Shown: in pieces, positions 23,457 through 54,690 of the stretch
Numbering within the stretch: position 1 is the stretch's first letter
Layout: each line of letters opens with the position of its first letter
Source: Escherichia phage NiC89
DNA length: 64,000 nucleotides
Reading direction: 5' to 3' (one strand)
Sequence record: LC620505.1
The notes under the pieces: model-generated
Told to the model about the DNA's origin: nothing
The model's input: the letters and a program-made list of their open reading frames with translations, nothing else
Database searches by the model: none
Position numbers and translations under genes: made by a program

Positions 23457-24059
23457 TTATAGATTAAATCCTTCAAAATCAAGAGTATAGATAGTGTATG
23501 TTGAATACTTTTTATACTCATATCTATCTGCAATTCTAAATACACTTCCAGCTGGTATCATTACTTCTTGTTCATCTGAAACTAATTCCATATTACGATA
23601 ACGATGACTATCCGGAAACTTAAAGTTTGGATTGTATTCTTTACAGCGTAGAGCTTTTATGGCATACTCCTGGAAATTGAATACCATAGGAGCTTTGAAT
23701 TCAAAAATAACCTGTGTGTTATACTCTAAACCGGAAGCAAAATGTAGAGCTATATTTTTATCATATGAAGCTGATACTACTTTATCAAATGTAATAATAT
23801 CAATTCCTTGATTTAACACCTGCTTAGTCTCAACTGGAACACCTCTCCAAAGAGGTTTATCGTTTGGAACCAAACGAGATTTGATTATTTCATTTAACCA
23901 AGTATGGTCATCTGGCTTATTAGTAATACAATGAATTAAAAGTTCAATTTCAGATAAATTAAACCCTTCAGAAAGTAATTCTTCACGAATAGAAGCACGC
24001 ACCGATGCATCCATTGATTTTATTTTAAAATCTTTTAGTTGCATTACTGAGTATTTCAT
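23457..24059 (-). CDS. modA: ADP-ribosyltransferase ModA
   Basis: 200 aa, same length as T4 ModA; R (LWRG), S-x-S (SAS) and E-x-E (EQEV) ART motifs. Confidence 0.7.
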   Translation of the reverse strand: MKYSVMQLKDFKIKSMDASVRASIREELLSEGFNLSEIELLIHCITNKPDDHTWLNEIIKSRLVPNDKPLWRGVPVETKQVLNQGIDIITFDKVVSASYDKNIALHFASGLEYNTQVIFEFKAPMVFNFQEYAIKALRCKEYNPNFKFPDSHRYRNMELVSDEQEVMIPAGSVFRIADRYEYKKYSTYTIYTLDFEGFNL

Positions 24060-24550
24060 TCAACTACCTCAATATCATAAACTTTAAATGTTCCAAATGA
24101 ATCGTGTAATTTTTCTTTTGAAATAGAAGTTATTTTGTACTTTCCAATTGGAATCATCCATTCTTGTTCATGCACAATCATCATTAAGTTATCAGTACGC
24201 TCTGAATCTAATCCATCAGTATCTTCATATGTATACTTAAACTCAGTATTAGGAGAAGAAAGTATAATATCGCTGATATGGTCAGAGTAATTAAAAGCTT
24301 TATCAGTTTTTAAACGAAGTATTGTTTCAGTGAAATATTCAGCATAAGAAAAAGAACACGCTGTATGCAAACTAGTAGTAAATGAATCTACCCTGTTCGT
24401 TGAAAACACTTCTCCAACTTGTAAATCTTTAATGAGTTCTTTTGTTGATTTTGATATACCACGATATAATTGATAAGGCGATTTAGTTAAATGCTTTTTA
24501 ATGATTTTATTCAACTGTCTGTGAAGAGCTTCATTCTTTTTAGCTTCCAT
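24056..24550 (-). CDS. modB: ADP-ribosyltransferase ModB, catalytic part; full gene needs a -1 shift from upstream frame starting at 24681
   Basis: 164-aa ORF with LYRG, TTS, HEQEW ART motifs; a 56-codon ORF from ATG 24681 is one frame off and joins at an A8 run, giving ~208 aa. Confidence 0.6.
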   Translation of the reverse strand: MEAKKNEALHRQLNKIIKKHLTKSPYQLYRGISKSTKELIKDLQVGEVFSTNRVDSFTTSLHTACSFSYAEYFTETILRLKTDKAFNYSDHISDIILSSPNTEFKYTYEDTDGLDSERTDNLMMIVHEQEWMIPIGKYKITSISKEKLHDSFGTFKVYDIEVVE

Positions 24551-24597
24551 ACATTGCCAAAGAACAGACTGCTCAAAGTCAGTAAATTTTTCACAAA

Positions 24598-24606
24598 CTT
24601 TTTTTT
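24598..24606 (-). other. A AAA AAG slippery heptamer within A8 run at the modB frame junction
   Basis: mRNA reads TAT AAA AAA AAG TTT in the upstream frame; a -1 shift continues into the ART domain frame. Confidence 0.5.
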
Positions 24607-24707
24607 ATACATATCATATTGAAAATCAACGCTTTCAGCTTTTATAGATAACTGTTCAACATCTGCAAGATTAATAATCATGATAGCCTCCGTATACTTC
24701 AGAAGCT

Positions 24708-26879: not shown

Positions 26880-27137
26880 TTAACCACCAATACCTGGAGT
26901 TGGCGTAACAGTCCAAAGACCTTCATTTGCAGTAATCCAATCAGCACGCTGATTTTCTTCATATACTGTTGAATATGCTGCTTTTTCTGAAGGAAATGTC
27001 TGATAATGAGCCCCAGAAATTTTGTGAACATCAGAATAAAGAGGGAAAGCTACAGAAATTTCTTTACCCTGAATTGTACCACCGTCAACTGCTTGGTCAA
27101 ATGTTTTAATATTAACATAACCGCGAGTACTAGCCAT
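26880..27137 (-). CDS. soc: Small outer capsid protein Soc
   Basis: 85 aa; sequence MASTRGYVNIKTF...ISVAFPLYSDVHKISGAHYQTFPSEKAAYSTVYEENQ matches remembered T4 Soc; late promoter upstream. Confidence 0.85.
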   Translation of the reverse strand: MASTRGYVNIKTFDQAVDGGTIQGKEISVAFPLYSDVHKISGAHYQTFPSEKAAYSTVYEENQRADWITANEGLWTVTPTPGIGG

Positions 27138-27153
27138 GTAATTCTCCTTTTAT

Positions 27154-27363
27154 TTAAATTACATGATTATTTATAATAAATTCTCGCGGAACGTTAAAAT
27201 ATCCGATTTTAGTTAATATAACAACATCACCGTTAATAATTACCGGAGAATAATCTTCTGGAGCATTAAATTTCCAATGGGCTCTAATATTATATCCATC
27301 AGAACCAAATGCTCGAGTAGCCGGTCTCCCGGCTTTTTGCCACGCATAGAAATCAAATTTCAT
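27154..27363 (-). CDS. Hypothetical protein, 69 aa (soc.1-like by position)
   Basis: ORF. Confidence 0.45.
   Translation of the reverse strand: MKFDFYAWQKAGRPATRAFGSDGYNIRAHWKFNAPEDYSPVIINGDVVILTKIGYFNVPREFIINNHVI
27168..27175 (-). promoter_or_regulatory. Late promoter TATAAATA upstream of soc
   Basis: Exact TATAAATA on - strand ~31 nt before soc ATG. Confidence 0.5.
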
Positions 27364-27554
27364 TTTGAATGCTCTATAATTAATTTTAAAGCTTCTTCAC
27401 TGACAAAAATTTCGTCAGGACCTTCTATAACTTCAACCATACGAAGTTGATTAGTTAAGAGCTCACATACGAGCTCCTTGTTATAATCTTTAAATAGCTG
27501 GTCAATACGTTTCTTATGGGCTTTCTTAAGCTGACGCTTATTTAAACGAGCCAT
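27360..27554 (-). CDS. Hypothetical protein, 64 aa (soc.2-like by position)
   Basis: ORF. Confidence 0.45.
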   Translation of the reverse strand: MARLNKRQLKKAHKKRIDQLFKDYNKELVCELLTNQLRMVEVIEGPDEIFVSEEALKLIIEHSK

Positions 27555-28072
27555 TAATAACCTCGGTCTTGACGAGCGAAGTTTTCAGCATTTTTCAGGT
27601 AATAAAGTTTAAAGATTTCTTCAGCTGACATTCCAAGAGCAATAAATTTATTCATGAAAAAATGAAATTGGTCAATAAGTTCAAATTTAATTTCAAGCTG
27701 ATCTTCGGGAGATAAATCTTGAATTTTCTTGGATTGCATTTCAGAATAACGTTTCTTCCAAGGTTTCCATACAGCAGAAGCTTCTTTTTCGCCATTACTC
27801 ATACCACCAAGAGAAGTATATAACTCGCGGGTTTCATCTGCGATATAATCGTCTTGGTTTCGCAACCAAGCAAGAACTTCTCCTGCAGTTTCAAGTGAAT
27901 CAGGATGACGATTTGTTTCTGGTTTATCATTAGCCAAACGAATCTGTAAATGCCGCTGCATATTAAGCATAACCTGCAGTGGGTCAATATTGTGCATAAT
28001 ATTCTCAGCATATGCACGATTTGCTTTATCAACACCTTCGATCAAATGAGCACATTCATTAAAGTAAGCCAT
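27554..28072 (-). CDS. 56: dCTP pyrophosphatase gp56 (MazG-like)
   Basis: Track ORF 203 aa; start taken at MAYFNE (172 aa; T4 gp56 171 aa) with AGGA RBS. Confidence 0.7.
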   Translation of the reverse strand: MAYFNECAHLIEGVDKANRAYAENIMHNIDPLQVMLNMQRHLQIRLANDKPETNRHPDSLETAGEVLAWLRNQDDYIADETRELYTSLGGMSNGEKEASAVWKPWKKRYSEMQSKKIQDLSPEDQLEIKFELIDQFHFFMNKFIALGMSAEEIFKLYYLKNAENFARQDRGY

Positions 28073-28096
28073 TATTTTTCCTTTCAATTCATGGGT

Positions 28097-28121
28097 TAGT
28101 AGATTAATTATACAATAAATA
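28097..28121 (-). promoter_or_regulatory. Middle promoter upstream of gene 56
   Basis: On - strand TTGCTTTA (MotA box), 11-bp spacer, TATAAT. Confidence 0.45.
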
Positions 28122-28143
28122 TATAAAGCAATAAGGAGGACAT

Positions 28144-28344
28144 ATGGTACAAAAATTAATGGCACTTGTTAATGCCATAAAAGGTAATAAAAAACGTATA
28201 GCTTTTACTATTTCTGCTATGGTAGGAATTTTACTCTGGAACTTTATTCTATCACCTATTGCAATTGCACATGGTATTAATATTCCAGTAGTTACTCTTG
28301 ATACATTTGTAGATTTAGCATTTGCTTTAGTTGGGTTAATTTAA
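28144..28344 (+). CDS. Candidate small membrane protein, 66 aa, convergent with gene 61
   Basis: TAAGGAGG then ATG; two hydrophobic segments; occupies the 56-61 interval where T4 carries 69/dam. Could be a chance ORF in AT-rich DNA. Confidence 0.3.
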   Translation: MVQKLMALVNAIKGNKKRIAFTISAMVGILLWNFILSPIAIAHGINIPVVTLDTFVDLAFALVGLI

Positions 28345-29369
28345 ATCTTAGCATATTTAGATAACCGCATTTTAGCCATCAACCCCTGGGCAATATTATT
28401 TTTCATATATTCCATAATTTGTTCAGGGGTTGCACCTTCCTTTCTAATCATATCATTAACATCTTTTGATTTCCAGGGAGATTTATCCCAAAACATAACC
28501 CTTTCTCCTGCATCAACTAATTTAGTCATTCGCTTGATAGTGTCAGGGTGACGAGGTTCATTATCTAAGACCCACACTCGTCTATCTTTAAATGGAACAA
28601 CTTCTAGGTCTAATTGACCACCCGTAATAGCTATACCATTTTCAATAAAAAGTGAATCTATAGGTCCTTCTAGAACATATACATCGCCATCTTTAACTCG
28701 TTCAACACCGTAAATTTTTGTTGCCTCAGGATAAGCTTTAATGGTGATATATTTTTGAGGAGCATCTTTCTTTAATGCACGTCCTTGAAAAGACTCAGCC
28801 TTTCCGTTAGCATTATAAATTGGAATAACAAGACGAGGCTCAGGTATTTCCTTTTTATATGTTCCCGGTACTATGCTATTAACCAATTTAGGCCATTCGG
28901 TTGTAAACCAAAGATATTTCCATTTATCCTTTGGAATACAACGAGCTTTTACATATTTTATAATTGGATGGTCTTCCGCCAGTTTATCTAATCTAACACA
29001 TGACGGAAGAGATTTAATTATTTTCTTCTCAGGTTGTTTAGGAAGTTCTTTAGGTTTTTCTACTGGACGACTTTTACCTTTTTCTTTTCTTATTTCAAAG
29101 ATATACTCACGATATAAATCAGGTTCAAACTCCTTTAAATATATTCCTATTGGTGCATGATAGTTACAGTTATAACAGTGAATATTTCCTTCATTATTAT
29201 CACCATAATACCATCCACGAGCTTTATTCTGGTCGGTTTTTGAATCTCCACAAACAGGGCATCTAAACCGCAATTTAAAAGTTGAACTATTATTTACTTG
29301 TGTGAATTTAGGTAAATGAGCTAATGCACGGTATGCAAACTCATTATCAATCCAAGGTATTGATGACAT
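28341..29369 (-). CDS. 61: DNA primase gp61
   Basis: 342 aa, same length as T4 gp61; N-terminal zinc ribbon CPVCGDS...CYNC. Confidence 0.9.
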   Translation of the reverse strand: MSSIPWIDNEFAYRALAHLPKFTQVNNSSTFKLRFRCPVCGDSKTDQNKARGWYYGDNNEGNIHCYNCNYHAPIGIYLKEFEPDLYREYIFEIRKEKGKSRPVEKPKELPKQPEKKIIKSLPSCVRLDKLAEDHPIIKYVKARCIPKDKWKYLWFTTEWPKLVNSIVPGTYKKEIPEPRLVIPIYNANGKAESFQGRALKKDAPQKYITIKAYPEATKIYGVERVKDGDVYVLEGPIDSLFIENGIAITGGQLDLEVVPFKDRRVWVLDNEPRHPDTIKRMTKLVDAGERVMFWDKSPWKSKDVNDMIRKEGATPEQIMEYMKNNIAQGLMAKMRLSKYAKI

Positions 29370-29371
29370 TT

Positions 29372-29536
29372 TTACTCTTCTTTTTCTTTAGATTCCTCTT
29401 TTTTCTTTTTAGGAATCTGTTCAGGACCTTTATTTACTACAGCGCCTGATGTTGTTCCAGTAGAGATATTTTCAGGACTACCACCTGAATCTCCAGCAAC
29501 CATATCTTCTTTGATAAATTCTTTATATGTTTTCAT
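29372..29536 (-). CDS. Hypothetical protein, 54 aa, Lys/Glu-rich tail (not in ORF track)
   Basis: Hand-translated MKTYKEFIKEDMVAGDSGGSPENISTGTTSGAVVNKGPEQIPKKKKEESKEKEE. Confidence 0.4.
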   Translation of the reverse strand: MKTYKEFIKEDMVAGDSGGSPENISTGTTSGAVVNKGPEQIPKKKKEESKEKEE

Positions 29537-32820: not shown

Positions 32821-33183
32821 TTAAAAGAATTTAAATTTTTTCTTTGACCTTTTATTAAATGCATCTTGTAGTTGCATTGTAATACATTTTTCTACATGAG
32901 GAGCTAACTCAGCTTTTCTTTCTTGGTCAAGAACAGCAAAGTCCATTACAACCTTTCCATCAACCCAATCCAGTTTAGTTACATACACTATATGTGTAGA
33001 ACCATCTTCTAGTTTAATGACAATCTCCTGGATAACATTTTCCATGGCAGATTTAATTATCTTAAGAGATTCATTAAAAAGACGTTCTTTTCTTTCTTCT
33101 TCCCCCTCCGAAGAGGGGGATTCATCGATAATTTCTAGATCTAAATCTAAATCATCTTTATTCATTAAATTCTTCCATATCAC
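32821..33183 (-). CDS. 40: gp40 (head vertex assembly protein), by size and position
   Basis: 120-aa ORF between 41 and uvsX. Confidence 0.5.
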   Translation of the reverse strand: MIWKNLMNKDDLDLDLEIIDESPSSEGEEERKERLFNESLKIIKSAMENVIQEIVIKLEDGSTHIVYVTKLDWVDGKVVMDFAVLDQERKAELAPHVEKCITMQLQDAFNKRSKKKFKFF

Positions 33184-34339
33184 TTAACTGCTCGAGGTCA
33201 GTTTCTAAATCAGCAGCTGATTTACTTTTACTTTCTGGGGATTTAAATTTTTCAACCTTTGAGTTAATCAATTCATCAACTTCAGCTTCAACAATTTCAT
33301 TACTATCAATAGCACCTAACTGATAAGCACGCTTAATAGCATCTCGGAATGGTTGATGCTTAAATAAAGGACCCCAGAATGTAGTGCAGTTGGTATCTTT
33401 TGCACGCCAAGATTTTTCTTCGCGAATCATCTCGCCGGTTTCTTCGTCAAGAAATTCACGAGCATACCAGCCATTTTTAGGTTTTACTACAAATCCTAAT
33501 TCTAGAGCCATATCTAACAATCCAGAATAAGGATCGATACCACCGTCAAATTTAACATCAATAAAGAATTTACTTTTTTCTTTAACGGTACGAGATTTTT
33601 CTACATTTAGAACAAATTGATACCCCTGAAGATCAGAACCATCTTTAATCTGACGTTTACCGATAATGAATACAGTATCAGCCGAATACATTACGCCTGT
33701 ACCACCTGTCATCACGGTTTTACTAAACATTTCAATTGTTTCAATTGTATGGTTAACCGCAACACATGGAATGTTTTTAATACTAAAATAAGGAGTAACA
33801 ATACGGAATAATGACTTCAGTGATTTAGCACGAGTCATATCTGCCACAGATTTTTCATTCAAGGCATCTTCAGTTTCTTTCTTAGAAGCCATATTACCGA
33901 TTGAGTCGATGAATACAATAACTTTTTCACCGCGTTCAATAGCTTCAAGCTGGTTCACCATATCAATTTTCAGCTGTTCAACTGACTGAATCGGCGTATG
34001 AATTACTCGTTCCGGGTCAACTCCCATGGATCGCAAATAAGCTGGAGTAATACCAAATTCGCTATCATAGAATAGACAAACCGCGTCAGGATATTTGTTC
34101 AAATATGCCGCAACCATAGTCAAAGACATATTTGATTTAAAGTGTTTAGAAGGCCCTGCGAAAATAGTTAAACCAGACTGCATACCGCCATCAATCGCAC
34201 CAGAAATAGCAATATTAAGCATTGGGATTTTTGTACGGATTACATCCTTTTCATTAAAGAATTTAGATGTAGTCAGTTCAGCAGTCATTTTAGAAGTGGA
34301 AGCTTTAATCAAACGGGATTTTAAATCTGCAATAGACAT
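33158..34339 (-). CDS. uvsX: UvsX recombinase (RecA-like)
   Basis: 393 aa; RecA-fold P-loop region; acidic C-terminus. Confidence 0.9.
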   Translation of the reverse strand: MSIADLKSRLIKASTSKMTAELTTSKFFNEKDVIRTKIPMLNIAISGAIDGGMQSGLTIFAGPSKHFKSNMSLTMVAAYLNKYPDAVCLFYDSEFGITPAYLRSMGVDPERVIHTPIQSVEQLKIDMVNQLEAIERGEKVIVFIDSIGNMASKKETEDALNEKSVADMTRAKSLKSLFRIVTPYFSIKNIPCVAVNHTIETIEMFSKTVMTGGTGVMYSADTVFIIGKRQIKDGSDLQGYQFVLNVEKSRTVKEKSKFFIDVKFDGGIDPYSGLLDMALELGFVVKPKNGWYAREFLDEETGEMIREEKSWRAKDTNCTTFWGPLFKHQPFRDAIKRAYQLGAIDSNEIVEAEVDELINSKVEKFKSPESKSKSAADLETDLEQLSDMEEFNE

Positions 34340-34352
34340 TCATTTTTTCCAT

Positions 34353-34377
34353 AGGCATCATTATATTTTCCTCACTG
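34353..34377 (-). promoter_or_regulatory. Candidate middle promoter upstream of uvsX
   Basis: On - strand TGCCTAA (MotA-box-like, 5/7), 11-bp spacer, TATAAT. Weak match. Confidence 0.3.
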
Positions 34378-34416
34378 GTTAAAGATAGAGTAATTATAAC
34401 ACAATAAATTTAGGCA

Positions 34417-35265
34417 TTAATCAACTGCTATTGGATGAATAGCATTAAACTTATGAAATGCTTCTGATTTTTCTTTACGTGAAACACACATGCGAAGAAC
34501 CTTTAATGGCTCGTCTTCTTCACCCAACGATTTTCGTTTTTCAATATTAGAAGTTTTCCAACGAGCTTGCTCTGGAAACTCTCTATTGATTTGCTCAAGC
34601 GCTCTATTATGTTTAGAATTACTACGAATTGAACTGCACCCGCCAGGAGCTTGTGCTTTTCCAGATACAACCAGATATTTGAACAAGGCCAAATGCGGAT
34701 AACCTTGATTAATTAAATTGAGAAATGCATACATATCTTCGCACAAATCAATTTTTCCATACCCAATTTGTTCTGTCGTAAGTTTTCCAAGGTCATACCA
34801 TGTATTCGTGAATCCGTATGAATTTTCACGATAATTACCCCAAGATGAAGTAATTTTAAAAATTGGTAGACGAGCATGACCATGATAATACCCACAATCC
34901 ATGGCATCCTCAACATATTGAATCAATTCATAGAACTGTTCACGAGTCAATTGATTGACTTTATCTACGCAACGACGATCATCTCTTTTTCGCATTGAAC
35001 TCATACGAATAGTAGTATCATCGTCAATCATCCAGATTCGTTGACCTGCATACATATCAGTAATTGCTTTACGAGTACCGGCAATTCCGTTTACATCATC
35101 AGGAATAGTTATAATTTTAGCTCTAGACCCATAGGCATCATAATAAGCTTTTTCTTCATGTTCACGCACTACAATATGAGGTTCATAATCAGTCGGAAAC
35201 ATATCAAGGGCAGAAACTGCCCCGACACGCTGATAACTTGGAATTACGAATTGAATCATTTCCAC
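34417..35265 (-). CDS. GT-A (DxD) glycosyltransferase in the beta-gt slot; candidate beta-glucosyl-HMC-alpha-glucosyltransferase
   Basis: 282 aa with IWMIDDDTTI motif; lies between uvsX and gene 42 where T4 has the 351-aa beta-gt. Confidence 0.5.
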   Translation of the reverse strand: MEMIQFVIPSYQRVGAVSALDMFPTDYEPHIVVREHEEKAYYDAYGSRAKIITIPDDVNGIAGTRKAITDMYAGQRIWMIDDDTTIRMSSMRKRDDRRCVDKVNQLTREQFYELIQYVEDAMDCGYYHGHARLPIFKITSSWGNYRENSYGFTNTWYDLGKLTTEQIGYGKIDLCEDMYAFLNLINQGYPHLALFKYLVVSGKAQAPGGCSSIRSNSKHNRALEQINREFPEQARWKTSNIEKRKSLGEEDEPLKVLRMCVSRKEKSEAFHKFNAIHPIAVD

Positions 35266-35996
35266 TCACCTTTATAGTCTTTTTTCACAATATGAGTTTC
35301 GCCAGTATTCCACCAATGATCAACCAAGTAAAAATGACGAGAATATACATGAAGACTTCCGACATTCCATATAATAGAACCTGCTTTATACTGACGAGTT
35401 GAATCGCCGGCATTCAAATCAGATACTAATTTATCTAATACGTATTTTTGCCATGCATAATCATTACGGAATCCGAAGACCACGTCATTTGAGCGCATGC
35501 TTACTACTGCATTAACTTTCTTATCACGAATCAGGTACTGTACTGTATTAGTACACATGAAATCTGACATACCATCTTTATTGTAGTCAAATTGCATGGA
35601 TGGACGAGTATAAATCATGATACCGCGTCGAGAATCAGGATTTTGACCAAGTTCAGCTAAACACATATCATACTGGGCATAGTTATCTTCTGACCAAATA
35701 GCCCAACCATAATTCGAGTTAATTTCACCTTTAGAAGATGCTACCTGCTGCCAAATCTTTGGTGTTTCGCCTGGAATATCTTTAACAAACAAGCTCTTAG
35801 ATTTATACCATTCAAGTTCACGCTGAATGTATTCATCATTAAGAGCGCCAAAAATAAACGGTTCATCTGCTACAAATGATGCGCCAATAATTTCAATAGT
35901 TTTAACACCAGTTTTATCGACTACGAAATCTTTTTCTTTTAATGCAAGCCCCAAATGAAGACGGATTTCTTCAACTGTCATAGAGTCACTAATCAT
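35256..35996 (-). CDS. 42: dCMP hydroxymethylase gp42
   Basis: 246 aa, same length as T4 gp42; thymidylate-synthase-like fold motifs. Confidence 0.9.
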   Translation of the reverse strand: MISDSMTVEEIRLHLGLALKEKDFVVDKTGVKTIEIIGASFVADEPFIFGALNDEYIQRELEWYKSKSLFVKDIPGETPKIWQQVASSKGEINSNYGWAIWSEDNYAQYDMCLAELGQNPDSRRGIMIYTRPSMQFDYNKDGMSDFMCTNTVQYLIRDKKVNAVVSMRSNDVVFGFRNDYAWQKYVLDKLVSDLNAGDSTRQYKAGSIIWNVGSLHVYSRHFYLVDHWWNTGETHIVKKDYKGEWK

Positions 35997-36003
35997 TTAA
36001 ACC

Positions 36004-36153
36004 TCAATTGATACATTCATATTTAACTTGTAACAGTAATAAACTCCAACCTATAATAAGTGGCGGAATCATAAGAGGAACTGTTACGCTATAGTATATA
36101 CTTATTATAATCATCAAGATTAAAAGCAATACTGCTAAAATTTTGCTTTTCAT
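36004..36153 (-). CDS. Small membrane protein, 49 aa (not in ORF track)
   Basis: Hand-translated MKSKILAVLLLILMIIISIYYSVTVPLMIPPLIIGWSLLLLQVKYECIN. Confidence 0.3.
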   Translation of the reverse strand: MKSKILAVLLLILMIIISIYYSVTVPLMIPPLIIGWSLLLLQVKYECIN

Positions 36154-36401
36154 TCCTTCTCTCTGATGATAATTACTTGATTTTGCTGTACAGATTTTTT
36201 AGTTTCACCTGCAATTGACCAAATAAAAGTAATAAACCAACCAATGATTGACCAGTTAAACAGTAAAGATGTGAAAAAGATTCCTACTGTCGATTTTGAC
36301 CCACGCATCAAGGCGATGAACCATGGAAGCATGTATATAATAATAGCCAACACGCCTGAAACTAAAACCATAAAAATTGAACCTGCTACTAAAGTTTCCA
36401 T
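36150..36401 (-). CDS. imm: Immunity protein Imm
   Basis: 83 aa, same length as T4 Imm; two TM segments; position between 42 and 43. Confidence 0.7.
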   Translation of the reverse strand: METLVAGSIFMVLVSGVLAIIIYMLPWFIALMRGSKSTVGIFFTSLLFNWSIIGWFITFIWSIAGETKKSVQQNQVIIIREKE

Positions 36402-39991: not shown

Positions 39992-40213
39992 TTAAATTAG
40001 CGCTATTTGTCGAGTGAAAATTGTCAATCCATCTACATTAATTGACTTAACGACTGCAGTAAAATGTTTTTGTTCTGGGTGAACTAGTTTTTGAAATTCT
40101 ACTTGAAATTTTAGTTGGAGGTTTTCTGGTAAATCAAAAAGTGTTTCTGTCGCAGAAAGATTATATTTTTCTTTAAGAGACGCCATGTATTCTTGCGGAG
40201 TTATAGCAGTCAT
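39992..40213 (-). CDS. Hypothetical protein, ~73 aa
   Basis: Track ORF 87 aa overlaps regA; internal Met start assumed. Confidence 0.4.
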   Translation of the reverse strand: MTAITPQEYMASLKEKYNLSATETLFDLPENLQLKFQVEFQKLVHPEQKHFTAVVKSINVDGLTIFTRQIALI

Positions 40214-46851: not shown

Positions 46852-46869
46852 AAAGGGCCGAAGCCCTTT
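46852..46869 (-). terminator. UUCG-loop hairpin (aaagggc-cgaa-gcccttt) at alpha-gt stop
   Basis: 7-bp stem. Confidence 0.45.
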
Positions 46870-48070
46870 ATTTTGTAATAATGTCAAACTGTTCTTTAAA
46901 GCAGAAGCTTGAATCTTGGTGCTGATACAAAAATTCATAAGCTTTTTCGCGTTCACGGTCATAAAGAGCTCGGTCAGATGACAGTTCTTTAATACGTTCA
47001 AATGTTGATTCCATGTCATTTTCATCAAACCAAACGATACCGCTATCATGAGAAATTAATGGAGTGTTATCAACACGGAATTTTAAATTTTCGCCAGTAG
47101 ATTTCCAAAATACCGGAATTGTTCCACATGCACCAAGCTCGAGATGAGTATATTCTAAAGAACGTTGTAGATATTTTTTATCCAACTTACTCAACTGATA
47201 ACCAAAACCGGATTTACTCATACGTTCAAGCATTTCGCTATTTACATAACGGTCAAGAATTTGCGTTGGCAAATTAGGAGCAATTTTAATTTGGTCTACT
47301 TGATGAAGACGATAATACTCGTATGGAATTCCTTTTTCTTTAATAGGAATGAACGCTGGAGAACGTTCCAGACCTTCCATAATAGTACTTAGTCCTGCAG
47401 GTTTAAGATGTTTTTCATGAAAATCAAACATCTGATAAAAACCTTTCCATGTAGTCGTGCGACCAATCCAACGGTTGATATTCATGTTAATTTCAGAAAC
47501 ATCTTTCCAGTAGGTTGACCGAACCTTCGCAATATCCATAGGAGGCTGAAAGTTATATACTGTCGGTGCTTCTTCAATATCATCAAACAGAGAAACAGTT
47601 TCTGGATACCATTCTTTCATCAGAACTTTATTAAAATCACCATTATCAGAATGGCTAAAAATAACATCAGCTCGACGAACAGTTTCTTCTAATCCCAAAT
47701 TTCGACGCAAAGAAAGAGAAGAATGGTCATGTTGATAAACTACAACACGAACAGAAGGTTTAATGTTATCAATAATTTTTTTATAGTTATTAATAGAGTC
47801 TTCTTCAACCGAAGTAGCAGGAACTGAATTGATAATTAGAATATCACAATCATTTACCAGCTTAAGTGTTTTATCGTATTCTTTTGCCAATAAAACCGGA
47901 ATTGAAAATGATTTATAATCATGCGCACAATTACGAGTAAATGATTTATCTTTAGCATAAACCAAAGTTACTTCATGACCATTTTTAATAAACCAATCAC
48001 GTTGCTCAAGAGAAAATTTAGTTACACCACAACCTTCAAGACCTCGAGCCATAAAAATACATACTTTCAT
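46868..48070 (-). CDS. a-gt: DNA alpha-glucosyltransferase
   Basis: 400 aa, same length as T4 alpha-gt; position after gene 47. Confidence 0.8.
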   Translation of the reverse strand: MKVCIFMARGLEGCGVTKFSLEQRDWFIKNGHEVTLVYAKDKSFTRNCAHDYKSFSIPVLLAKEYDKTLKLVNDCDILIINSVPATSVEEDSINNYKKIIDNIKPSVRVVVYQHDHSSLSLRRNLGLEETVRRADVIFSHSDNGDFNKVLMKEWYPETVSLFDDIEEAPTVYNFQPPMDIAKVRSTYWKDVSEINMNINRWIGRTTTWKGFYQMFDFHEKHLKPAGLSTIMEGLERSPAFIPIKEKGIPYEYYRLHQVDQIKIAPNLPTQILDRYVNSEMLERMSKSGFGYQLSKLDKKYLQRSLEYTHLELGACGTIPVFWKSTGENLKFRVDNTPLISHDSGIVWFDENDMESTFERIKELSSDRALYDREREKAYEFLYQHQDSSFCFKEQFDIITK

Positions 48071-52405: not shown

Positions 52406-52876
52406 TTAATCATGTGTCCACACCCCATCGGTATTTGACCAAAGTCGCTGATTATCTGATCCTCGCCACAGCTTTTTGGTCGGAAGATTTTTCTCATACT
52501 TCCCATCAATAATAACATCAACATATTTAAGCATTTCTAGTTGTTTAATATCTTCAAACTTATATCCTGTCCACAACCAAATGCTTTTATTGGGATAAAG
52601 ATTTTTAATAGTTTGAACCACAGAGTGAATCACGTCTCTGTTATCAGGATAAAGAGGGTCACCCCCGGTTATAGTTAATCCTTCTATATAATCATTATTC
52701 AAACATTCAATCAATTGTTCTAGTGTTTCACCAGTGAATGGAATACCATTTCTAGCATTCCATGTTGATTTATTATAACACCCTTCGCATTTATGCAAAC
52801 AACCTGTAACGAAAAGAACGACCCTGCATCCAGGGCCATTCACAAAATCGCAAGGATAAAATCTATCATAATTCAT
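52406..52876 (-). CDS. nrdG: Anaerobic ribonucleotide reductase activating protein NrdG (radical SAM)
   Basis: 156 aa; CxxxCxxC cluster (CLHKCEGC). Confidence 0.85.
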   Translation of the reverse strand: MNYDRFYPCDFVNGPGCRVVLFVTGCLHKCEGCYNKSTWNARNGIPFTGETLEQLIECLNNDYIEGLTITGGDPLYPDNRDVIHSVVQTIKNLYPNKSIWLWTGYKFEDIKQLEMLKYVDVIIDGKYEKNLPTKKLWRGSDNQRLWSNTDGVWTHD

Positions 52877-54690
52877 TGATGCTTAACCCTATGCATGATT
52901 TCTTTATTTTTACCGAGATTAAATCCGCGTTCGTTCGGATTTCCCAAATAACCGCATGTTCTTCTTATGGTATTCATCTTTTTGGGATCAGTTTCTCCAC
53001 AAATAGAACAAACAAATCCGTTTTCAGTAGGAGTCATTTCATGGGTACTTCCACATGTAAAACATTTATCTACTGGCATGTTAACACCAAAATAATCTAA
53101 ATGTTGTGCAGCATAATCCCATACAGCCTCAAGACCTTTTAAGTTATTTTTCATATCAGGAAGTTCAACATAAGAAATATGACCACCTGTCGCAATGAAA
53201 TGATATGGCGCTTCACGAGAAATCTTTTCAAACGGAGTAATATTTTCTTCTACTGAAACATGGAAACTATTAGTGTACCAACCTTTATCGGTAACATCCT
53301 TTACACTTCCATATTTTTCGGTATCAAGTTTACAGAAGCGATAACAAAGGTTTTCAGCAGGAGTAGAATACAAACTAAAAGCAAACCCAGTTCTTTCAGT
53401 CCACTGTTTAAGACGAGCATTCATTTTAGTTAAAATTTCCTGTCCAATATCACGACCGACAAGAATATTCAATTCGTGAATACCAATGTATCCTAGAGAC
53501 ACTGAACTTCTGCCATTTTTAAATAACTCAATTATATCGTCATCAGGTTTAAGACGAACCCCGAATGCACCTTCTTGGTAAAGAATAGGAGCAACAGTCG
53601 CTTTAACTCCTTTTAAGGAACTAATTCTACACATCAAAGCTTCAAAACATAAATCCATTCGTTCATTGAACAATTCGATAAATTTCTGTTCATTGAACTG
53701 TGTTCCAATATAAGAATCTAATGCGATACGAGGAAGATTCAGTGTTACAACACCAAGATTATTACGACCGTCAAGAATTTCATTACCGGTTGAATCTTTC
53801 CACACGCTCAAGAAACTACGACAACCCATTGGAGAAACAGGAATAGATGAGCCAGTGATAGCTTTATTGTTCTTAGCTGAAATAATATCAGGATACATTC
53901 TTTTGCTTGCGCACTCTAGAGCAAGCTGTTTAATATCATAGTTCGGGTCGTCTTTATAAAGATTAACACCTTCTTCAACGAACATAACAAGCTTAGGGAA
54001 AATAGGAGTTATCCCATCACGACCAAGACCTTTAATACGATTTTTCAGAATTGCTTTCTGAATCATTCGTTCAGTCCAGTCAGTTCCTGTACCAAATGTA
54101 ATTGTTACAAAAGGTGTTTGTCCGTTTGAACTAAAGAGAGTATTTACTTCATATTCATAAGCTTGGAATGCATCGTATACATCTTTTTCTGTTTTAGATT
54201 GAGCATAATTTAACGCATCAGCGATTTGCCATTTTTCTGCATCCTCAATATGTTTTGCATAGGTGCGTTTAACATAAGGAGAAAGTACTTTATCTACATT
54301 AGCAAAAGTCGTTCCGCCATATTGGTGAGAAGCAACCTGTGCAGTAATTTGTGCCATAATTGCAGTAGCAACACCGATTGATTTAGGAGTTTCAATCTGT
54401 GCATTACCTAGCTTAAATCCGTTCTCAAGCATTCCTTTTAAATCTACTAAACAACAATTAGTAAATGGAAGAGCAGGGGAATAATCAATATCGTGGAAAT
54501 GAATAATTCCGCTTTCATGCGCTTTCATAATAAAAGACGGGACCATATTTTTGGCAATGTGCTTAGACACAATACCAGCCATAAGGTCCCGTTGAGTTGG
54601 AAAAACACGAGAATCTTTATTAGCATTCTCGTTTAAAAGGTCTTTATTAGTTTTATGAATCAATCCTTCAATTTCTTTTTCAATTGTCAT
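52873..54690 (-). CDS. nrdD: Anaerobic ribonucleoside-triphosphate reductase NrdD, uninterrupted
   Basis: 605 aa; C-terminal glycyl-radical motif RRTCGYLG and Zn-ribbon cysteines; a single continuous ORF. Confidence 0.95.
   Translation of the reverse strand: MTIEKEIEGLIHKTNKDLLNENANKDSRVFPTQRDLMAGIVSKHIAKNMVPSFIMKAHESGIIHFHDIDYSPALPFTNCCLVDLKGMLENGFKLGNAQIETPKSIGVATAIMAQITAQVASHQYGGTTFANVDKVLSPYVKRTYAKHIEDAEKWQIADALNYAQSKTEKDVYDAFQAYEYEVNTLFSSNGQTPFVTITFGTGTDWTERMIQKAILKNRIKGLGRDGITPIFPKLVMFVEEGVNLYKDDPNYDIKQLALECASKRMYPDIISAKNNKAITGSSIPVSPMGCRSFLSVWKDSTGNEILDGRNNLGVVTLNLPRIALDSYIGTQFNEQKFIELFNERMDLCFEALMCRISSLKGVKATVAPILYQEGAFGVRLKPDDDIIELFKNGRSSVSLGYIGIHELNILVGRDIGQEILTKMNARLKQWTERTGFAFSLYSTPAENLCYRFCKLDTEKYGSVKDVTDKGWYTNSFHVSVEENITPFEKISREAPYHFIATGGHISYVELPDMKNNLKGLEAVWDYAAQHLDYFGVNMPVDKCFTCGSTHEMTPTENGFVCSICGETDPKKMNTIRRTCGYLGNPNERGFNLGKNKEIMHRVKHQ

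Follow-up and report, generated by a model that had tools for sequence, protein, structure and literature searches.

A probable T2/T6-type beta-glucosyl-HMC-alpha-glucosyltransferase gene in the uvsX-42 interval of Escherichia phage NiC89

Introduction

The phages T2 and T6 encode a beta-glucosyl-HMC-alpha-glucosyltransferase (ba-gt, ggt or g-gt; 'TAGT' in recent papers), EC 2.4.1.28. Winkler and Rueger reportedly cloned and sequenced the T2 and T6 genes in 1993. The acceptor of the T-even enzyme is a base that already bears glucose, not hydroxymethylcytosine (hmC) itself (PMC13216743). Its biochemistry goes back to the 1960s; PMC13216743 cites Lehman and Pratt 1960, Kornberg et al. 1961 and Kuno and Lehman 1962 as the original studies. 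The chemistry of alpha-glucosyl-hmC and gentiobiosyl-hmC has been summarised more recently (PMC6024577; bioRxiv 10.64898/2026.02.25.707755). When ba-gt was deleted from T6 the second glucose was lost, and the authors describe only alpha-glucosyl-hmC in the mutant (PMC11078745).

In T4 a different enzyme is found at this place. The T4 b-gt gene (PF09198) adjoins gene 42, in the same slot as the gene of phage NiC89 studied here, but it encodes a protein of 351 aa with a GT-B fold, whereas the NiC89 protein has 280 aa and a predicted GT-A fold; the T4 slot also holds the homing endonuclease gene segA, which the NiC89 slot lacks. According to the literature, both T4 b-gt and ba-gt use UDP-glucose as donor and transfer its sugar in beta linkage to phage DNA that contains hmC, but the acceptor is the hydroxyl of hmC for T4 b-gt and the 6-OH of an existing glucose for ba-gt. 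Most phage genomes containing enzymes of this kind pair either alpha-gt or beta-gt with a TAGT, and the combination of alpha-gt and beta-gt seen in T4 was found in 6 of 753 genomes (PMC13216743). In ten new Tequatrovirus phages, the TAGT gene occupies the syntenic place of T4 beta-gt (PMC13390438). In Tequatrovirus, the pairing of alpha-gt with TAGT is the common one, and T4 is the exception.

A third system, that of the Mosigvirus arabinosyl-transferases of the RB69 or Bas46-47 type, also builds first a mono- and then a disaccharide on a modified cytosine (PMC13390438). It uses another sugar and another base, 5-hydroxycytosine, and we set it apart by its description. The NiC89 sequence carries gene 42 and a-gt, not the arabinosyl pathway of Mosigvirus.

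Results and Discussion

Location and start codon of the ggt gene

The window analysed in this work is a stretch of 64,000 nucleotides of Escherichia phage NiC89 (LC620505.1). It is an ordinary mosaic Tequatrovirus sequence; many records match it at 94-98% identity, but none is the same. In the ORF map, the ggt gene is located on the minus strand between gene 42 (35256-35996, minus) and uvsX (33158-34339, minus), which lies downstream and delimits the syntenic slot. The mechanical ORF counted from the first GTG extends from 35265 to 34417 (minus), encodes a protein of 282 aa that includes IWMIDDDTT. Within the start region (35257-35265, minus), an ATG (35259-35257) lies two codons inside the GTG at 35265. 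This ATG overlaps the stop codon TGA of gene 42 (35256-35258) as ATGA and is preceded by GGTGAG, which resembles a Shine-Dalgarno sequence. In addition, the genes of RB18, T2 and AR1 are annotated as 843-nt CDSs encoding 280 aa, and in T2 the ATGA overlap with gene 42 is annotated as we find it in the window. On these grounds the GTG start was rejected, and the ATG at 35259 is likely to be the true start. Because the frame of 843 nt annotated in RB18, T2 and AR1 is exactly this one, we take 34417-35259 (minus; 280 aa plus stop) as the gene and use the 280-aa numbering throughout. The first-pass annotation of this DNA had described a gene of 282 aa containing IWMIDDDTT between uvsX and gene 42; the slot and the motif were found as described, whereas the length has to be corrected to 280 aa from the ATG.

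The ORF is full length, without any frameshift or internal stop and without homopolymer runs of six or more nucleotides. The gene is probably coupled translationally to gene 42 through the ATGA overlap. A consensus scan of the interval 34250-36250 yielded 12 promoter-like sites against 9.7 expected, and thus gave no evidence for a dedicated ggt promoter. The single terminator-like hairpin detected in the same interval sits within coding sequence and was disregarded.

Identity of the encoded enzyme

The protein encoded by the window shares 278 of its 280 residues with the T2 enzyme, as given by two T2 records, the two differences being R11H and P251S, which are private to T2. The T6 protein differs from it by three substitutions (Y40N, D55G and R106H). 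A megablast search with the gene retrieved 474 phage records with at least 90% DNA identity over the full length, nearly all of them from Escherichia, Shigella or Yersinia Tequatrovirus phages, and many of these records annotate the product as beta-glucosyl-HMC-alpha-glucosyltransferase, ggt or beta-alpha-glucosyltransferase. The best DNA match, that of Shigella phage CM8, reaches 98.8%, so that NiC89 carries a new allele of a gene that is itself very common.

The profile searches point in the same direction. The protein matches PHROG 842 ('beta-glucosyl-HMC-alpha-glucosyltransferase') with E = 2e-89, and the only Pfam family reported is PF20691 (TET-associated glycosyltransferase, TAGT), with 38.9 bits against a gathering threshold of 27.5; residues 5-209 align to positions 2-205 of the 205 positions of this model (E = 1e-9). 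NCBIfam holds no model for ba-gt or a-gt. The window protein and 125 distant relatives have in common the TAGT motifs, i.e., an N-terminal IPSY-x-R, a DxD, an ED and a GG motif. The T-even clade nevertheless stands far from the core of the family, as indicated by the E-value of 1e-9 against the Pfam model and by its 17-30% identity to most of the representatives.

The gene also agrees with T2/T6 ba-gt in its length, in its slot between uvsX and gene 42, and in having a-gt, gene 42 and gene 56 as partners. The second glucosyltransferase of the T2/T6 type that had been predicted from the reading frame is thus borne out by the BLAST comparison with T2 and T6, and PHROG 842 and the TAGT assignment concur with it. 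We conclude, with a probability of roughly 0.93, that the gene is an intact ba-gt (ggt) gene of the T2/T6 type, whose product would add a second glucose onto alpha-glucosyl-hmC.

Predicted fold and conserved residues

A search of the PDB with the ggt sequence gave only chance matches (E >1); no TAGT structure has been solved, and the roles of the residues are therefore assigned by analogy. An AlphaFold2 model built from an alignment of nine sequences reached a mean pLDDT of 72 and a pTM of 0.75, i.e., moderate confidence, with poorly defined loops at residues 130-140 and 192-211 (pLDDT <50). The model is a single Rossmann-like alpha/beta domain that resembles solved GT-A enzymes, rather than the two domains of a GT-B fold, and its best viral structural match is annotated as the same enzyme. 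This is consistent with a published model of T6 TAGT, which was described as GT-A and placed beside GT2 (PMC13216743).

To assess conservation, 1.84 billion representative proteins were searched with a profile; this found 2165 relatives, 125 of which were aligned (17-64% identity to the window protein). Five residues are invariant among these 125 representatives (R11, D80, D175, G186 and G207), and eight more are conserved in at least 90% of them (I6, P7, R63, D79, D81, L180, G206 and R212). All of these invariant or nearly invariant residues are present in the window protein.

The DxD motif, D79-D80-D81 (35017-35025, minus), is placed at the end of the predicted strand 74-79, and its three aspartates are invariant in nine homologues down to 28-32% identity. 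By analogy with other GT-A enzymes, it presumably forms the site for a divalent metal and the diphosphate of UDP-glucose. The pair E174-D175 (34735-34740, minus), within the sequence CED, contains the invariant D175, which by analogy with GT2 enzymes may serve as the catalytic base in an inverting GT-A mechanism. The codon of the family-invariant R11 (CGT; 35227-35229, minus) is replaced by a histidine codon only in phage T2. The initial proposal of a DxD-type GT-A enzyme, made from the DDD sequence, is therefore in accordance with the predicted fold, with the conservation of D80 in all 125 representatives and of D79 and D81 in at least 90% of them, and with the position of DDD directly after strand 74-79.

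Partner genes and comparison with the T4 arrangement

The a-gt gene (46868-48070, minus) encodes a DNA alpha-glucosyltransferase that matches the Pfam AGT family with E = 1e-235 and the solved T4 AGT structure (1XV5) over all 400 residues with E = 2e-256. Gene 42 encodes the dCMP hydroxymethylase that makes the hmC precursor, and its product is 97% identical to T4 gp42. The presence of both genes had been noted in the first-pass annotation, and these matches corroborate it. The window also contains gene 56 (27557-28072, minus), encoding the dCTPase of the hmC pathway, a diverged allele with 68.6% identity to T4 gp56 over 171 aa in tblastn. Since a-gt, gene 42 and gene 56 are all found, hmC synthesis and the addition of the first alpha-glucose are encoded in the same window as ggt.

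In the pathway that we propose for NiC89, the products of gene 42 and gene 56 would channel the dCMP pool into hmdCMP, and hydroxymethylcytosine would enter the DNA at replication. The alpha-gt would then attach a first glucose to the hmC of the DNA by an alpha linkage, and ba-gt would extend it by a second glucose, taken from host UDP-glucose and joined in beta-1,6 linkage, to yield gentiobiosyl-hmC.

The a-gt gene, with tracts at nt 289-295 and 892-897, carries a run of seven A at the position of the A-run of T2 agt, and is in frame here. For T2 agt, the A-run (bases 288-296) has been reported to act as a 'contingency locus' through reversible frameshifting (bioRxiv 10.1101/2025.10.21.683753).

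We found no similarity to T4 b-gt, either by blastp against the ggt protein (best E = 2.2) or by tblastn against the whole 64-kb window (best E = 1.4). This absence of similarity, together with the presence of a-gt, gene 42 and gene 56 in the window, supports the T2/T6-type reading, and it agrees with the earlier view that the protein is unlike T4 beta-gt. In T4 the interval consists of segA and b-gt, whereas in T2, T6, RB18, AR1 and the window it consists of ggt alone. The suggestion that the gene replaces T4 beta-gt is thus right as far as synteny is concerned, but it should not be understood as a replacement, given that alpha-gt with TAGT is the commoner arrangement.

Other T4 genes are also missing from the window. 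A tblastn search across the 64 kb found none of segA, segF and dam. The interval 34340-34416 has no segA, which T4 carries at the equivalent position, and the interval 27100-29400 contains neither a dam methyltransferase gene between gene 56 and gene 61 nor segF, both of which are present in T4.

Expected extent of diglucosylation and the R11H allele of T2

Describing a phage as having T2/T6-style DNA covers two very different outcomes, since gentiobiosyl-hmC amounts to about 5% in T2 and about 72% in T6. In T2, alpha-glucosyl-hmC accounts for about 70% and gentiobiosyl-hmC for about 5% (PMC6024577; bioRxiv 10.64898/2026.02.25.707755). In Tequatrovirus phages with a-gt and TAGT, HPLC/MS detected 5-hmdC and its alpha-glucosyl and alpha-gentiobiosyl-methyl-dC forms, and no beta-glucosyl form; gentiobiosyl residues made up about 40% or about two-thirds of the modified cytosine species in all ten Durham phages with this gene pair (PMC13390438). 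One of the phages of that study, Solly (OY720021), has a ggt gene 98.5% identical in DNA to that of the window.

The T2 substitution R11H falls on the arginine that is invariant in the 125 TAGT representatives. The two T2 records with this substitution in our comparison are those of loci L004 and L008. A peptide of 36 aa containing H11 was found exactly in 8 of 683 phage records, seven of them T2 records and the other one SV76, the record of which has the length of one of the T2 records. R11 is present in the window, T6, RB18, AR1 and five IMG/VR relatives, and the five loci covered by the IMG/VR scan, a number too small for statistics on alleles, encode the same Q10, R11, DDD and P251 as the window. 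Because the residues invariant in the family are intact in the window protein, including the R11 that T2 has lost, we expect that NiC89 DNA contains substantial gentiobiosyl-hmC, as in T6 and the Durham phages, with some unglucosylated hmC and no beta-monoglucosyl-hmC.

The main alternative accepts the same enzyme, but supposes that it is as weak in NiC89 as in T2, so that the DNA would contain mostly alpha-monoglucosyl-hmC and a few percent of gentiobiosyl-hmC. The T2 protein, with its 5% of gentiobiosyl-hmC, is after all two residues away from that of the window, and the expression level or the allele of alpha-gt could matter as well. We consider this alternative unlikely, however, since one of the two residues is precisely the invariant R11, retained in the window and changed to histidine in the eight records mentioned above, and since gentiobiosyl-hmC makes up the shares given above in all ten Durham phages with the same gene pair. 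In this context, the T2 enzyme could be a hypomorph and the window enzyme fully active, a hypothesis that fits both the distribution of R11H and the levels found in the Durham phages. A bolder version, that the ba-gt allele largely sets the extent of diglucosylation, with R11H explaining the difference between T2 and T6 and the fully active window allele producing mostly gentiobiosyl-hmC, is tentative and in our opinion rather doubtful; the gentiobiosyl ratio may just as well depend on the expression level or on the allele of alpha-gt.

Lesions in the T6 reference records and the remaining alternatives

Two independent public genome records of T6 carry a ggt gene with a different lesion in each. 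In MH550421 (locus L003:3138-3980) codon 10 is changed from CAG to an amber TAG, and the CDS is annotated from M20; the equivalent position in the window is 35230-35232. In AP018814, whose sequence is that of NC_054907 (locus L007:4135-4974), one GAT of the DDD motif is lost in frame, leaving 279 aa; the window equivalent is 35017-35025. In the full-gene megablast, the DDD deletion was seen only in the AP018814/NC_054907 record among the top matches. A tblastn search with a 36-aa peptide of this 'DD' allele gave no match, probably owing to the masking of RKRDDRR as low-complexity sequence. These changes are either stock mutations or sequencing errors. As each record has its own lesion, the sequences may not represent the stock whose DNA chemistry is usually quoted, and laboratories that employ T2 and T6 as standards of defined DNA modification could profit from this remark on the reference alleles. 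The window gene has neither the amber codon nor the loss of an Asp from DDD.

Given that both T6 records are lesioned in ggt, loss of the gene would seem to be tolerated in laboratory stocks, and one might ask whether the NiC89 ORF is itself an inactive remnant, in which case alpha-glucosyl-hmC and unglucosylated hmC would be the only forms made. This is very improbable for an ORF that is full length, retains the conserved residues, has no long homopolymer and shares Q10, R11, DDD and P251 with the five IMG/VR relatives.

Finally, GT-A/GT2-like enzymes act mostly on acceptors other than DNA, and about 288 of 753 phage genomes carry TAGT homologues but neither alpha-gt nor beta-gt (PMC13216743), so that acceptors are diverse in the wider family. 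The idea that the NiC89 protein glycosylates a non-DNA target (the host envelope, some protein or a small molecule), its place in a DNA-modification locus being incidental, nevertheless hardly deserves consideration in view of its near-identity to the T2/T6 enzyme, whose DNA role was demonstrated genetically in T6 (PMC11078745) and biochemically in the 1960s by Kornberg et al. and by Kuno and Lehman, as cited in PMC13216743.

Meaning of the ggt annotation

The T2/T6-type ggt gene of NiC89 is a standard member of a described family in its usual genomic context, and the whole of this finding is already published, as the enzyme, its fold of the GT-A type, its syntenic relation to T4 beta-gt and the HPLC/MS of relatives each appear in published work. 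For the window, the gene is of little consequence beyond its correct annotation. The value of this annotation is that ggt leads one to expect alpha-glucosyl-hmC plus gentiobiosyl-hmC, and not the mixture of alpha- and beta-monoglucosyl forms of T4.

According to the literature, the distinction affects the sensitivity of phage DNA to several defences, and the effects on restriction and CRISPR-Cas suggested in the first-pass annotation likewise rest on published work. The Brig1 glycosylase does not degrade T6 DNA, which contains mostly gentiobiosyl-hmC, while T6 without ba-gt is more susceptible (PMC11078745). BapA is unable to take the glucose off gentiobiosyl-hmC (bioRxiv 10.64898/2026.02.25.707755). 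Enzymes of the GmrSD type still cut gentiobiosyl-hmC DNA (PMC13216743; PMC13390438). The annotation is thus of use for predicting the host range of phage therapy candidates, but it belongs to the textbook biology of the T-even phages.

Other features of the window

The modB gene (24056-24684, minus), encoding an ADP-ribosyltransferase, is seemingly frameshifted at a run of eight A near 24599-24606. AR1 ModB aligns here in two different frames, one through its residues 1-27 and the other through 26-207, which meet at this run; the run may be prone to slippage or may reflect a sequencing error.

Two extra segments distinguish the window from AR1. One, of about 350 bp, lies between soc and gene 56 (27154-27554, minus) and carries two small ORFs (69 and 64 aa). 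The other, of about 220 bp, separates regA from gene 43 (39995-40213, minus) and contains a small ORF of about 73 aa (MTAITPQEYMASLKEKYNLS...), which is followed, upstream of gene 43, by a GGGGCTTCGGCCCC hairpin.

The nrdD gene of T4 (sunY) carries a group I intron. In the window, nrdD (52873-54690, minus) is one uninterrupted ORF of 605 aa.
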